A stretch of DNA of 64,000 bases from Escherichia phage slur07. The notes beneath the pieces were generated by a model. It did not search any database, was not told the origin of the DNA, and saw only the letters and a list, made by a program, of their open reading frames with translations. The stretch is from sequence record NC_028780.1. One strand, 5' to 3'. Positions 1,278 to 5,608 of this stretch are shown here, piece by piece (position 1 is the first letter of the stretch; every line of letters begins with the position of its first letter). A program made the translations under genes and the position numbers.

Positions 1278-1304
1278 GGGAGAGCCTCGGCTCTCCCTTT
1301 TTTA
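1278..1304 (+). terminator. intrinsic terminator (GC hairpin GGGAGAGCC/GGCTCTCCC plus T-run)
   Basis: Perfect inverted repeat followed by TTTTTTATTTT directly after the small ORF. Confidence 0.6.
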
Positions 1305-1328
1305 TTTTAAAAATTTTTTCACAAAACG

Positions 1329-1358
1329 GTTTACAACCAAAGCATACTGTGGTACTAT
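1329..1358 (+). promoter_or_regulatory. T4-type early (sigma70) promoter upstream of motA
   Basis: -35 GTTTACA at 1329-1335, 17-bp spacer, extended -10 TGgTACTAT at 1350-1358, A/T-rich upstream element; near-identical copy at 18519-18548. Confidence 0.55.
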
Positions 1359-1399
1359 ACAACTATCAACTACTGATACAGAATTACGGAGATTAGAAA

Positions 1400-2035
1400 A
1401 TGTCTAAAGTAACTTACATCATCAAAGCTTCTAACGATGTTCTGAATGAAAAAACTGCTGCGATTTTAATTACCATTGCTAAGAAAGATTTCATTACAGC
1501 CGCAGAAGTTCGTGAGGTGCATCCAGATTTAGGTAACGCAGTAGTTAATAGTAATATTGGGGTATTGATTAAAAAAGGCCTGGTGGAGAAATCTGGTGAT
1601 GGATTAATCATTACAGGTGAAGCTCAGGATATTATTTCAAATGCAGCAACTTTATACGCGCAGGAAAATGCTCCGGAACTGCTGAAAAAACGAGCAACTC
1701 GTAAAGCTCGTGAGATTACTTCCGATATGGAAGAAGATAAAGACCTCATGTTAAAACTTTTAGATGAAAATGGATTTGTTCTTAAAAAGGTTGAAACTTA
1801 TCGCAGTAACTATCTCGCTATTTTAGAAAAACGCACTCACGGAATTCGTAATTTTGAAATTAACAACAATGGAAATATGCGAATTTTTGGATATAAAATG
1901 ATGGAACATCATATTCAGAAATTTACTGACATCGGAATGTCATGTAAAATCGCTAAAAACGGTAATGTGTATCTTGACATTAAACGTTCGGCAGAAAACA
2001 TTGAAGCTGTAATCGCTGTAGCATCTGAACTGTGA
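1400..2035 (+). CDS. motA: MotA, middle-promoter transcription activator
   Basis: 211 aa, same length as T4 MotA and near-identical from MSKVTYIIKASNDVLNEK onward. Confidence 0.92.
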   Translation: MSKVTYIIKASNDVLNEKTAAILITIAKKDFITAAEVREVHPDLGNAVVNSNIGVLIKKGLVEKSGDGLIITGEAQDIISNAATLYAQENAPELLKKRATRKAREITSDMEEDKDLMLKLLDENGFVLKKVETYRSNYLAILEKRTHGIRNFEINNNGNMRIFGYKMMEHHIQKFTDIGMSCKIAKNGNVYLDIKRSAENIEAVIAVASEL

Positions 2036-2045
2036 GGAATAAATA

Positions 2046-2375
2046 ATGAACAAGTTAGAAATTGTTAATGAACTTCGTCGTTGCGCAGAACCTACTCAAG
2101 AGGGTTGGGACATCTGGTACCACGGAGCTTATCTTGGAACTATCGTAAAGATTAAGACCGGTAAATACATGATTATTCGTGAAAGTAAAGATGCTCCAGT
2201 AGGTATTCGCAATAATTTCATGGCAGCGATAAGTTCCTTTACAGATTCAGCTTACGAAATTTACCTTGCTGATTATAAAGAATTCCAGGAATCTCAACCA
2301 GTTATTCGTTCAATTGGTGTTAACAAAGCTCAACAGAAATCTTTGTGGCAGCGTATTAAAGGATGGTTTAAATGA
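2046..2375 (+). CDS. hypothetical protein (arn-motA variable region)
   Basis: 109-aa ORF, start 10 nt after motA stop, end overlaps next ORF start (ATGA). Confidence 0.6.
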
Positions 2376-2833
2376 ATCCATTTATTAATCGTTTAAAAAT
2401 GCTGAATGTTCCTTTATCTCGTGAAACTCCAGAAAGTCTTGTTGAAAAATTTAAAGCACATGGTTATAAATGCACAGAAGAAGATATTCTAAAAGAAGTT
2501 CCTGAAATCTGTTGGCAGACAGCATATTGGGATGAAAACCAAAAGTATCAACGACGAATTGTTTGCGCAGCCAACCGTTTTAAATTAAAAGATGGACGAA
2601 CTCTTGTTATTCCAGGTGCTCGTCATTATTCTAAAGATATGGCAGCAGTTTTAGATGTAGTTAAACCTCAATTAGTTACTCAGCAAGTTTGTGATGATGA
2701 CCAAGGGTTTATTGACCAATATAGTAATTATTGGACACGTGAAGAAGCAATGATTATTGCAACTTACGCTGGACAAGTACGTATTGAACGTGGTGGTAGT
2801 GAAAAAGAACTTTACTCTGAGGACCTTTACTAA
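2372..2833 (+). CDS. hypothetical protein (arn-motA variable region)
   Basis: 153-aa ORF translationally coupled to neighbours. Confidence 0.6.
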
Positions 2834-3129
2834 TGAATATTAAAAAGTTTCAAATTGATGGAATTACGAATCAAATCAAGGCGCTGGAATATGCCAATAA
2901 AATGATGTCAACCAAATGGGGAATTTATGCCAATGAACCGGCATTTCAGTTCTGTAATATGGAATTCACCAAAAAGCTCGTAGGAAAAGATTATGTATGT
3001 CCATTTAGTTCCCCAATAAATGGAATGCTAAAACCTGCTTTACGCGATCTTTATATTGCGATGAACGAAGAGATGATAAAAGAATTAAAACGTCAACTGA
3101 AGGTGATTCAATTTGGCCAGGGAAATTAA
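2833..3129 (+). CDS. hypothetical protein (arn-motA variable region)
   Basis: 98-aa ORF, start overlaps upstream stop. Confidence 0.55.
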   Translation: MNIKKFQIDGITNQIKALEYANKMMSTKWGIYANEPAFQFCNMEFTKKLVGKDYVCPFSSPINGMLKPALRDLYIAMNEEMIKELKRQLKVIQFGQGN

Positions 3130-3331
3130 TTCAAAATCTGATTATTTTAATTCTCTCAATGATAAAGATAAAAATCTAATACGGCATTTTATCGTTGAGA
3201 TGGGATATACTGATACACGTGATTTAAGAGAACATATATTTGAATGTGGTGTAGCTAAAAAGTTTTCATTCACATGCAAATGTTTGAGAGAGGTAATTCA
3301 GCACTATGAACAATTTAGTCGCAAAGCATAA
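3113..3331 (+). CDS. hypothetical protein
   Basis: 72-aa ORF overlapping upstream ORF by 17 nt; coding status uncertain. Confidence 0.4.
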   Translation: MAREINSKSDYFNSLNDKDKNLIRHFIVEMGYTDTRDLREHIFECGVAKKFSFTCKCLREVIQHYEQFSRKA

Positions 3332-3414
3332 TTTTAATAAAGCTTCTGTTCATAAAGATAAGAAGAAAGCGTTTAAAGAATCTAATCGCAAACAGAAACA
3401 TAAGGGGAAGGTCT

Positions 3415-3693
3415 ATGATTATTGATTCTCAGTCTGTGGTTCAATACACAATCAAAATTGATATTCTAGAAAAGCTATATAAGTTTCTACCAAATTTATA
3501 CCACTCAATTGTCAATGAATTAGTTGAAGAACTACATCTCGAGAATAATGATTTCTTGATTGGAACTTATAAAGACCTCTCAAAAGCAGGATATTTTTAC
3601 GTAATTCCAGCTCCAGGAAAAAGTATTGATGATGTATTAAAAACTATAATGATTTACGTCCATGATTATGAAATTGAAGATTATTTCGAATGA
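3415..3693 (+). CDS. arn: Arn, anti-restriction (McrBC inhibitor) protein
   Basis: 92 aa, same length and position (upstream of asiA) as T4 Arn; acidic C-terminus. Confidence 0.8.
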   Translation: MIIDSQSVVQYTIKIDILEKLYKFLPNLYHSIVNELVEELHLENNDFLIGTYKDLSKAGYFYVIPAPGKSIDDVLKTIMIYVHDYEIEDYFE

Positions 3694-3854
3694 GTCATAA
3701 TCTTGAAAAGGTAATCGAGCATAATGTAGCTCAGGAACGTAAGTCGTTCAAGGAATTCGTAGAAAAAATTTTTGAAGAAAATAACACAGACCAGTTTACA
3801 AATCAAGTGTCTGATGATATTATAATAAAGTCAACTAATTGAGTGGTATAGTTA

Positions 3855-4127
3855 ATGAATAAAAACATTGATACAGTTCGTGAAATTATTACTGTTGCGT
3901 CTATTTTGATTAAATTTTCCAGAGAAGATATTGTTGAGAATCGTGCTAATTTTATTGCATTTCTGAATGAGATTGGAGTAACGCATGAAGGTAGAAAGTT
4001 AAATCAGAATTCATTCCGTAAAATTGTTTCTGAATTAACCCAAGAAGATAAGAAAACCCTCATCGACGAATTCAACGAGGGTTTTGAGGGTGTATATCGA
4101 TATCTAGAGATGTATACGAACAAATAA
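3855..4127 (+). CDS. asiA: AsiA, anti-sigma70 factor
   Basis: 90 aa, essentially identical to T4 AsiA (MNKNIDTVREIITVASILIKFSREDIVENRANFIAFLNEIGVTHEGRKL...). Confidence 0.93.
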   Translation: MNKNIDTVREIITVASILIKFSREDIVENRANFIAFLNEIGVTHEGRKLNQNSFRKIVSELTQEDKKTLIDEFNEGFEGVYRYLEMYTNK

Positions 4128-4784
4128 TTATTTAGCCCTTCCTAATATTCTGGCCGCCTGAGCACATATTGATTCAAGGCGGTCATTACTTATATGATCA
4201 TTTCTATACCAGTACATGGTTATCGTTCCAGCATAGATATTATCCAAATTAAAATATGGACAACTGTACATATAGTTTATTTCGGGAGTAGGCTTTTTAG
4301 TTGGTAAAAAAGCAAATTTTGAGTTGGAATAATAATGACGTCCATTTAAATGAACTGTATATTCATCCATAGTTTTATCAACAGGATATCCTCCAAGTGA
4401 TTTTTCAGTTATTGTTGAAGGTAATCTTCCTTCATATGCTATAATATCAACAAAATAGTTTAAGTTTTTAGGGCGGAAAGAATACACCGCACTAAAGTCT
4501 GCCTCAGATGATATATGAACTATCTGGAGTTGTTCCAGGGCGACAGATTCAAAGCGTGCATTTCTTTCCTTTTCAATAATTTCACTGTATGTTTCATACT
4601 TTGATTGCTTATAGTACTCAAAGAAACTATCTCCCCTATACCAAACAATCGCCATCATAAATAAAAGAATTACGACAGCTACCCGGGAAGCAAGAACTTT
4701 CCCGGTAGCATTATCTTTGAACAAGCGATCTAGAACACCAAATAGAATATCAGAGGGCGAAAATGATATTCTAGGTGCTGCCAT
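4128..4784 (-). CDS. t: holin T
   Basis: 218 aa as in T4 holin; single N-proximal TMD with large periplasmic domain; convergent with asiA, stop codons abutting. Confidence 0.9.
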   Translation of the reverse strand: MAAPRISFSPSDILFGVLDRLFKDNATGKVLASRVAVVILLFMMAIVWYRGDSFFEYYKQSKYETYSEIIEKERNARFESVALEQLQIVHISSEADFSAVYSFRPKNLNYFVDIIAYEGRLPSTITEKSLGGYPVDKTMDEYTVHLNGRHYYSNSKFAFLPTKKPTPEINYMYSCPYFNLDNIYAGTITMYWYRNDHISNDRLESICAQAARILGRAK

Positions 4785-4816: not shown

Positions 4817-5608
4817 TTATACTCTTGAACCATATATTGTGCCAACTTTAGTCCAAGTTGGAGCGTTACCAGTAACAGCTTTACCAGCCGCACCGCCCGA
4901 GTGAACAGTTCCTCCAGTACCACCTTGAATATATGAAGACTTGCCAGCAGCTCCCAAATCTCCACCATTTCCTCCATAGTGAACCCCAGAAACAGTACCT
5001 TTACCAGGAGCAGAAATTGTACCAGCAGATGCTGCCGCCGCGCCACCTCCTGCTGCGCCAGCTGCGCCAAATGGACGACCGCCGCCGCCACCAAATATCA
5101 TATCCATTTGAGGGAAAGGATGGTATCTAGCGCCAGCGCCGCCACCGCCACCGCCACCAATAATACCATTATTGTTTATTCTTAAACGAGTTCCAATTCC
5201 GTTATTTATTGCAGTTCCTCCTGCTCCACCAGCAGAGTTACTTCCGCCATTTCCTCCCCGACCTAATACATGAACCCCACTATTAATATTTAAGGTAACA
5301 TATGCATTAGTTAATGAACTAGGAAAATCTAAGCAAGGTTGCCCAGCTGATGAAGAAACAATATTTCCTGTAATAGTAACAACAACAGGAGTACTACCTT
5401 GAGATTTGAGATAATTTATTAGCGTGTCTTTATTATATGAATTACTAGCGCCAATACTGTAATATACTTCTTTAGATTGCCCAGCCATTGAACTCATCCA
5501 ACCGGGAACTGAAACACGAACTGCTCTCATCGCAGCATCCATCCAACGTTGTCCAGTTTCATTCACGGCAGATTCGCCAATCCAGCCAGGAACACCTACA
5601 ATTGCCAT
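4817..5608 (-). CDS. 38: gp38 long-tail-fibre adhesin, T2/T6 type with glycine-rich motifs
   Basis: 263 aa; N-terminus MAIVGVPGWIG..AVNETGQRWM conserved with T2-type gp38; several poly-Gly tracts (GGGGGGGAG, GGGGGRPFG) separating variable segments; immediately downstream of gene 37. Confidence 0.85.
   Translation of the reverse strand: MAIVGVPGWIGESAVNETGQRWMDAAMRAVRVSVPGWMSSMAGQSKEVYYSIGASNSYNKDTLINYLKSQGSTPVVVTITGNIVSSSAGQPCLDFPSSLTNAYVTLNINSGVHVLGRGGNGGSNSAGGAGGTAINNGIGTRLRINNNGIIGGGGGGGAGARYHPFPQMDMIFGGGGGRPFGAAGAAGGGAAAASAGTISAPGKGTVSGVHYGGNGGDLGAAGKSSYIQGGTGGTVHSGGAAGKAVTGNAPTWTKVGTIYGSRV

Follow-up and report, generated by a model that had tools for sequence, protein, structure and literature searches.

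Between the genes motA and arn, the 64,000-nucleotide stretch of Escherichia phage slur07 analysed here (sequence record NC_028780.1, hereafter the window) contains four small open reading frames (ORFs), all on the + strand. An initial annotation, made from the letters alone, had listed them as a set of unknown function. Sequence comparison identifies them as the conserved T-even genes arn.4 (2046-2375), arn.3 (2372-2833), arn.2 (2833-3129) and arn.1 (3113-3331), and the proposed coordinates and lengths (109, 153, 98 and 72 amino acids) were confirmed. Our best explanation of the whole, held with moderate confidence, is that these genes are maintained by purifying selection and encode accessory takeover proteins that would act on host components. 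No lytic phages are better studied than T4 and T2, yet roughly half of their genes, these four among them, are without known function. Within the set, Arn.3 represents the most promising lead and offers tractable access to a phage protein family that is very large, uncharacterised and marked by an enzyme-like signature.

Bases 1300-4200 of the window have matches in 813 phage records, the best being the Tequatrovirus genomes vB_Eco_TB37 (98.4%) and T2 (97.5%). The window belongs to a T2-like Tequatrovirus. The four proteins are 93-99% identical to those of T4 over their full lengths (tblastn), and the order and orientation between motA and arn are the same in the T4/T2 orthologues. Each ORF matches a PHROG family: 1594 for arn.4 (E=3e-54), 839 for arn.3 (E=6e-74), 1844 for arn.2 (E=2e-49) and 4452 for arn.1 (E=7e-39, residues 1-71). 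Pairwise Nei-Gojobori ratios of non-synonymous to synonymous substitution rates (dN/dS), calculated against a range of diverged relatives, lie at about 0.05-0.3 for all four ORFs, the same range as for motA and asiA. Because of these ratios, and because the homologues span the full lengths, all four are judged to be under purifying selection and to be true genes rather than chance frames.

Synteny was analysed by tblastn against 78 IMG/VR loci retrieved with the Arn.3 profile. The order motA-arn.4-arn.3-arn.2-(arn.1)-orf39...asiA-t, where orf39 is an unnamed ORF of 39 amino acids, is kept across the Tevenvirinae genera with identities down to 32-37%. It was found in about 40 T4-like IMG/VR loci and in T4, T2 and TB37. 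In every Tevenvirinae locus examined arn.4 starts 11 nucleotides past the motA stop, and arn.4 homologues were only seen in loci that also carry motA. Homologues of Arn.3 are present in many phages devoid of MotA and AsiA. The genes arn and asiA.1 were detected in close T4/T2 relatives only; therefore the 'arn.x' names are purely positional. Within the operon, it is arn, the only gene with a proven anti-defence role, whose distribution is patchy.

The genes arn.4 to arn.1 are the cistrons 2 to 5 of a chain of eight overlapping or abutting ORFs located on one strand, namely motA, arn.4, arn.3, arn.2, arn.1, the 39-amino-acid ORF, arn and asiA.1. The stop codon of motA is followed by the motif GAGGA and, 11 nucleotides downstream, by the ATG of arn.4. 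The junction arn.4/arn.3 consists of a shared ATGA and the junction arn.3/arn.2 of a shared TAATG. The TTG of arn.1 is located 17 nucleotides inside arn.2, with the motif AAGGTGA just upstream. This layout is compatible with the translational coupling that had been proposed for the set.

The reference records of T4 and T2 differ from the window for two of the four genes. In these references arn.4 is annotated as a protein of 68 amino acids starting at an internal Met (window 2169, Met42 of the long form). In T4 the start codon ATG is replaced by ATA, the remainder of the frame being open, and T2 has a frameshift caused by a 2-bp GG deletion (window 2124-2125) that is common to three independent T2 records. 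An ATG is found at the long start in 41 of 42 T4-like loci, and the window carries the intact gene of 109 codons. In IMG/VR the ATG allele is present in six contigs, and the search for the T4 allele gave none. The homologues of arn.4 form 55 clusters, with full-length coverage in all but two partial or lesioned entries and identity down to 45%; the first 41 codons are likewise conserved to 45% identity and include several invariant residues. From the sequences, the 68-amino-acid 'Arn.4' of the references seems to be an artefact that arose by damage to the laboratory strains of T4 and T2, the two lesions being of independent origin. The lost start of T4 and the frameshift of T2 suggest that arn.4 is dispensable in laboratory hosts. 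Since laboratory T4 and T2 are natural arn.4 mutants, wild Tequatroviruses would be the right background in which to search for a phenotype.

For arn.1, the T4 and T2 references give a protein of 43 amino acids starting at the ATG 3200. The 29 codons ahead of this ATG (SKSDYFNSLN..K..I..FI.ELGY) are conserved with 48-71% identity. Diverged phages start arn.1 at the position of the long form with ATG or GTG, and most of them have Leu at the annotated Met30. In the window, the TTG 3113 is preceded by a good Shine-Dalgarno sequence (AAGGTGA, 3099-3105) and the internal ATG 3200 has none. The comparison favours the 72-amino-acid protein starting at TTG 3113 over the 43-amino-acid reference model, so that the lengths proposed initially for arn.4 and arn.1 are preferred to those of the references. 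The reference models of both genes are apparently wrong or strain-damaged, which matters to anyone deleting or expressing either of them.

The start of arn.1 also concerns the regulation of the transcript. A bioRxiv preprint of June 2026 describes that the T2 transcript arn.4-arn.3-arn.2-arn.1-arn is stabilised by the host small RNA ArcZ, which shields it from RNase E, by pairing at arn.2 +285 to +294 (10.64898/2026.06.19.733364). In the window this site, CCAGGGAAAT, is found on the + strand at 3117-3126, at the same arn.2 positions (+285 to +294), and covers the last codons of arn.2 as well as nucleotides 5-14 of the long arn.1. The E. coli ArcZ (RF00081) was verified to contain the complementary sequence AUUUCCCUGG. 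The CCAGGGAAAT site is present in close T4/T2-type loci only, and the C-termini of arn.2 differ in other genera. The sequence GCATT, given in the preprint (as GCAUU) as a putative site of RNase E, is located on the + strand at 3184-3188, 11 nucleotides ahead of the annotated ATG of arn.1, in codons 24-26 of the 72-codon gene. The preprint treats 3130-3199 as a '70-nt intergenic region' (10.64898/2026.06.19.733364). If arn.1 starts at TTG 3113, the ArcZ site would therefore lie in the initiation region of arn.1, and both the '70-nt intergenic region' and GCAUU would be arn.1 coding sequence. The binding of ArcZ/Hfq could then also affect the translation of arn.1, and the corrected arn.1 model, if true, bears on the ArcZ/RNase E model of 2026. 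The scoring of ArcZ along the transcript with RNAduplex, in which accessibility terms were not included, was uninformative, other segments scoring equally.

The products of the four genes were compared with the available family and structure databases. No significant match was obtained for any of them in Pfam, NCBIfam and PADLOC, and, apart from the label of PHROG 4452, no function is assigned to the PHROGs that they match. The only hits in PADLOC-DB were sub-threshold (E=3e-3 to 4e-3, about 15 bits) and covered short stretches. In the PDB, phmmer and profile searches with all four proteins gave nothing below E=0.1. No similarity to solved anti-defence proteins was detected, either by sequence or profile for the four proteins or by fold for the models of Arn.3 and Arn.4. 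Arn is a DNA-mimic inhibitor of McrBC. When the family DM_Arn was searched against the region, none of the four ORFs matched at E<=0.1 and only the ORF 3415-3693, arn itself, was recovered. PHROG 4452 and many GenBank records nevertheless label homologues of arn.1 to arn.4 as 'anti-restriction nuclease'; no match supports this label, which seems to have been taken from the name of the locus. In the T4 and T2 records, arn.4 to arn.1 are annotated as 'hypothetical' or 'conserved hypothetical'. Searches of the literature by gene name, accession and locus tag recovered one relevant paper, the ArcZ preprint, in which arn.1 to arn.4 are twice said to be of unknown function (10.64898/2026.06.19.733364). 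The initial annotation had envisaged that all four might prove to be conserved T4 proteins of known function. Conserved T4 proteins they are, and none of them belongs to a characterised family or resembles a solved structure, so that the description of the set as being of unknown function agrees with all these sources.

Arn.3 (pI 5.5, starting at ATG) is composed of an N-terminal helical region (residues 1-45) and of a T4_Y16D core (about residues 62-153). Its homologues form 155 clusters, all of which carry the precomputed Pfam tag PF26092 (T4_Y16D, an 'uncharacterised protein' family). A profile search of 1.84 billion representatives recovered 3,436 clusters (50% identity) at E<=1e-3 and 1,383 at E<=1e-10. 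The majority of these matches are stand-alone proteins of 85-110 amino acids. The Arn.3 of T4-type phages differs from the T4_Y16D family by an additional N-terminal helical extension of about 45 amino acids, missing in most family members, and shares with PF26092 the signature RH...QGFxD...R...Q...SExLY-COOH. Among 146 family representatives, the residues kept in at least 90% of sequences are V64, A66, A67, R84, H85, Q111, G112, F113, D115, R123, A126, A130, Q135, L147, S149, E150 and the C-terminal Y153 (Arn.3 numbering), and Arn.3 itself carries every one of them. By its composition, this set looks like a catalytic or ligand-binding constellation and not like a purely structural core.

An AlphaFold2 model of Arn.3 was built from an alignment of 47 sequences (predicted local distance difference test score, pLDDT, 88.8; predicted template modelling score 0.72). 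It displays three N-terminal helices, a core made of a beta-hairpin, a helix, a second beta-hairpin and a second helix, and a C-terminal tail. The comparison of this model with the PDB by Foldseek gave no neighbour (best E=0.22, TM-score below 0.25). In BFVD, 22 matches were obtained at E<1e-3, nearly all uncharacterised, one of them bearing the label 'putative polynucleotide kinase'. Many phage groups are represented, among them T4-like phages infecting Acinetobacter and Yersinia, Klebsiella phage Menlow, Serratia phage phiMAM1, Erwinia phage PhiEaH1, Pseudomonas and Pseudoalteromonas phages, and metagenomic siphoviruses and podoviruses. Just past the cut-off of E=1e-3 there were matches in Agrobacterium phage 7-7-1 and in an Aeromonas phage. 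Large polyvalent proteins are linked to counter-defence. The core of Arn.3 aligns marginally with three BFVD entries of this type from uncultured Caudovirales (A0A6J5LG11, A0A6J5LI71 and A0A6J5SNR6), with E values of 3.3e-3, 5.1e-3 and 8e-2 and query TM-scores of 0.33-0.37. About 95 residues of the core are aligned, with 24% identity at best, and none of the Pfam LPD models matches Arn.3. Three other candidates were considered and set aside: Prok-E2_B (E=0.08, insignificant), the Nif11-leader (E=4e-3, below the cut-off) and ArgR (E about 1, Foldseek probability <=0.1, insignificant).

The relatives of Arn.3 are almost entirely phage-borne. In a collection of 185,579 bacterial and archaeal species, with one genome each, they were found in 3 loci only, all in metagenome-assembled genomes, which gave no informative cellular context. 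A tblastn search with a minimal member of the T4_Y16D family recovered 1,513 phage genomes; among the matches listed, the annotation is 'hypothetical' or 'anti-restriction nuclease'. No recognisable Pfam partner domain was detected in the ten longest of 150 listed family matches. The neighbourhood of Arn.3 homologues was sampled in 24 non-T4 phage loci, where the sole recurrent family is DUF4326, adjacent or nearly adjacent in three loci. The domains cREC_REC and SNF2-related helicase each occur twice, and families seen once include NADAR, RNA ligase, MazG, dGTP diphosphohydrolase, SSB and DNA methylase. These neighbourhoods are early accessory or replication modules; they are suggestive of, and compatible with, a chemistry directed to nucleotides or nucleic acids without being proof of it.

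Arn.4 is a basic protein (pI 9.2, starting at ATG). Its AlphaFold2 model has a pLDDT of 80.2, with values of about 90 for most of residues 1-80, and consists of an alpha/beta core of helix-beta-meander-helix type (residues 1-83), a low-confidence linker and a C-terminal helix (residues 100-107). The last 12 residues have a hydrophobic moment of 0.60 and a mean hydrophobicity of -0.19, compared with 0.57 and -0.21 for the membrane-targeting helix of FtsA. We hypothesise from these values that Arn.4 may associate peripherally with the membrane via its amphipathic C-terminal helix. The model has no Foldseek neighbour in the PDB (best E=0.6), and DUF4276, which occurred as scattered noise in lenient member-by-member Pfam scans of the alignment, was rejected.

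For Arn.2 (pI 9.3, starting at ATG), 23 close clusters were obtained, and tblastn detects relatives across the Tevenvirinae down to 34% identity. The N- and C-terminal segments are conserved and the middle is variable. From its sequence the protein is judged to be helical with a coiled-coil-like C-terminal helix; in the lenient alignment scan, Pfam gave only weak matches to coiled-coil families, in the manner of scattered noise. In Arn.1 (pI 8.5), the residues His41, Cys45 and Cys57 are invariant among 13 diverse sequences and His64 is conserved in at least 90% of them, with the spacing H-x3-C...C-x6-H. This set of His and Cys could form a zinc site, and the motif IAKRF..(S/T)..CLREVI is possibly helix-turn-helix-like; the lenient Pfam scan gave two stray weak zinc-finger matches only.

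From these observations we propose that four unrelated small soluble proteins would be produced from one motA-to-asiA.1 chain, with an early-type promoter-like site upstream of motA. We infer that none of them is a virion or replication protein. Their most likely part in takeover would be an accessory one, directed at host components and dispensable in laboratory hosts. In Arn.3, a domain of about 92 amino acids would carry a catalytic or ligand site formed by R84, H85, Q111, D115, R123, Q135, S149, E150 and Y153, and the ligand would probably bear a phosphate (a nucleotide, a nucleotide-derived signal or a nucleic-acid end). Arn.4 would be a basic alpha/beta protein whose flexible linker and amphipathic C-terminal helix may serve peripheral membrane targeting. 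Arn.2, helical and coiled-coil-like, is probably a binding or adaptor protein, and Arn.1 a small protein with a possible zinc site. In T2, the expression of the set is reported to be stabilised by the pairing of ArcZ at the arn.2/arn.1 junction (10.64898/2026.06.19.733364). Several points weigh against such accessory proteins acting on the host. The readings as ligand site, membrane helix and zinc site are drawn from conservation and composition only, and none of the searches above gave a family, motif or fold match for a specific activity. The enrichment in the neighbourhoods of Arn.3 homologues is weak, the best family being present in three of the 24 loci. A synteny so stable across genera is unusual for anti-defence cargo, and a housekeeping role in takeover, for example one tied to the middle transcription controlled by MotA/AsiA, would be equally possible.

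The initial annotation had taken the region as a likely place for further host-takeover or anti-defence functions. In its strict form, this hypothesis would make the arn.4-arn message a counter-defence operon, in which several or all of the four proteins serve to inhibit particular bacterial immune systems. An anti-defence role is plausible, but in this strict form we regard it as rather doubtful. The genes share with arn, which encodes the McrBC inhibitor, both their transcript and its ArcZ-dependent stabilisation. The independent inactivation of arn.4 in laboratory-passaged T4 and T2 and its integrity in 41 of 42 T4-like loci are what one would expect of a gene that is required solely on wild hosts. 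The same direction is indicated by the scarcity of Arn.3 relatives outside phages, by the DUF4326 and NADAR genes that adjoin Arn.3 homologues in some phages and by the structural matches of the Arn.3 core to large polyvalent protein domains. These last matches are marginal (E=3e-3 to 8e-2), however, and there is no likeness to solved anti-defence proteins by sequence or profile for the four products or by fold for Arn.3 and Arn.4. The 'anti-restriction nuclease' labels of GenBank and PHROG 4452 add nothing, being without supporting match. Moreover, the position of arn.4, arn.3 and arn.2 is kept in each of the Tevenvirinae genera examined, a distribution unlike that of arn, which is found only in close relatives of T4/T2. 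Carried further, the idea would be that the T4_Y16D core has a previously undescribed fold with a conserved pocket, that Arn.3, as a novel enzyme or sponge, breaks down or sequesters some host molecule derived from a nucleotide (for instance an immune signal, or a derivative of ADP-ribose or NAD), and that arn.4-arn is a multi-target counter-defence operon silent in laboratory E. coli; this we consider unlikely.

The opposite emphasis is given by a role in core reprogramming instead of immune evasion, the four proteins assisting, as accessory factors, either the takeover of transcription by MotA/AsiA or the metabolism of nucleotides or RNA. It is a live alternative, to which we attach a low probability. 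The cluster lies between motA and asiA, with arn.4 starting 11 nucleotides past the motA stop in every Tevenvirinae locus examined and its homologues seen only in the company of motA. The conserved signature of Arn.3 suggests an enzyme, and Arn.3-like genes occur in replication and nucleotide modules of unrelated phages (SSB, helicase, MazG, dGTP diphosphohydrolase, RNA ligase). Nevertheless, arn.4 is disrupted in T4 and T2, phages in which middle transcription is normal. No DNA-binding or RNA-polymerase-binding domain was detected with Pfam and the lenient alignment scans, and many phages with Arn.3 homologues possess neither MotA nor AsiA. Finally, it could be that one or several ORFs are untranslated, or that the products of arn.4 and arn.1 lack their N-terminal extensions, the reference models of 68 and 43 amino acids being correct. 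The short forms are those of the T4/T2 annotation, the long arn.1 requires a TTG start, and 3130-3199 has been taken as intergenic (10.64898/2026.06.19.733364). Against them stand the conservation of the 29-residue extension of Arn.1 with an ATG or GTG start in diverged phages, the Leu in place of Met30, the good Shine-Dalgarno sequence found at the TTG and not at the internal ATG, the conserved first 41 codons of arn.4 with their invariant residues, and the two lesions (ATG to ATA, and the GG deletion) to which the short arn.4 of T4 and T2 is traced. We hold the short models to be highly improbable.

The genes surrounding the set are those named by the initial annotation, as established by their Pfam matches. 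The gene motA (1400-2035, + strand), first cistron of the chain, matches MotCF (E=1e-66) and MotA_activ (E=5e-61). The gene arn (3415-3693, + strand) matches DM_Arn (PF22134, E=4e-54) and overlaps by ATGA with asiA.1 (3690-3842, + strand), the last cistron. It is followed by asiA (3855-4127), which matches the family AsiA (E=1e-42). Between arn.1 and arn, the unnamed 39-amino-acid ORF (3306-3425, + strand, pI 10.2) overlaps arn.1 by 26 nucleotides and arn by 11 nucleotides and matches DUF7230 (E=1e-11). It displays the strongest conservation of the cluster, with a dN/dS of 0.04-0.11, and the invariant pattern ...VAK..FN....HK..K.....S.RK.KHKG. This ORF is present in all T4-like loci examined, is unannotated in the T4 reference NC_000866 and was outside the list of the initial annotation. 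A relationship to the ribosome-rescue factor ArfA was rejected (hhalign probability 0.4%).

Transcription signals were searched with a consensus scan, promoter-like matches being called at a 9-of-12 threshold. An early-type promoter-like site (TTTACA-17-TACTAT with TG) is located on the + strand at 1330-1358, upstream of motA, and is the sole match ahead of the four-ORF block that sits upstream of a gene start. Three other matches on the + strand fall within genes, at 1870-1899 and 1922-1950 in motA and at 2697-2725 in arn.3. A second early-type promoter-like site is found at 3795-3823, upstream of asiA. The scan detected no terminator-like site on the + strand at 1300-4130, and the canonical pattern of MotA-box middle promoters (TGCTTNA-N11-13-TANNNT) is absent from 1400-3400. 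The scans of the region with Rfam and for repeats were empty. A strong terminator-like hairpin at 1277-1298 lies ahead of the promoter-like site of motA and comes after motA.1 (1123-1272). The latter encodes a very hydrophobic protein of 49 amino acids (grand average of hydropathy 1.61; PHROG 3487) and overlaps by ATGA with the end of gene 52. Farther away, on the - strand, gp38 (4817-5608) has 263 amino acids and is rich in glycine runs; the gp38 of T4 is a tail-fibre assembly protein of 183 amino acids, and a note in the T4 record describes the unrelated 'gp38' of the T2 subfamily as an adhesin. Judged by the gp38 criterion of this note, the phage would be T2-like in receptor recognition.

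Compared with their orthologues in T4 and T2, the genes of the window differ by an intact arn.4 and by the longer arn.1, the references carrying a lesioned arn.4 and a 43-amino-acid annotation of arn.1. Among the closest known systems is Arn, with which the products of arn.4 to arn.1 have in common the transcript, a similarly small size and an early to middle expression. No sequence similarity links them to Arn, which is acidic (pI 4.5), whereas Arn.4 (9.2), Arn.2 (9.3) and Arn.1 (8.5) are basic and Arn.3 has a pI of 5.5. Arn is also confined to close relatives of T4 and T2, whereas arn.4, arn.3 and arn.2 are found throughout the subfamily.

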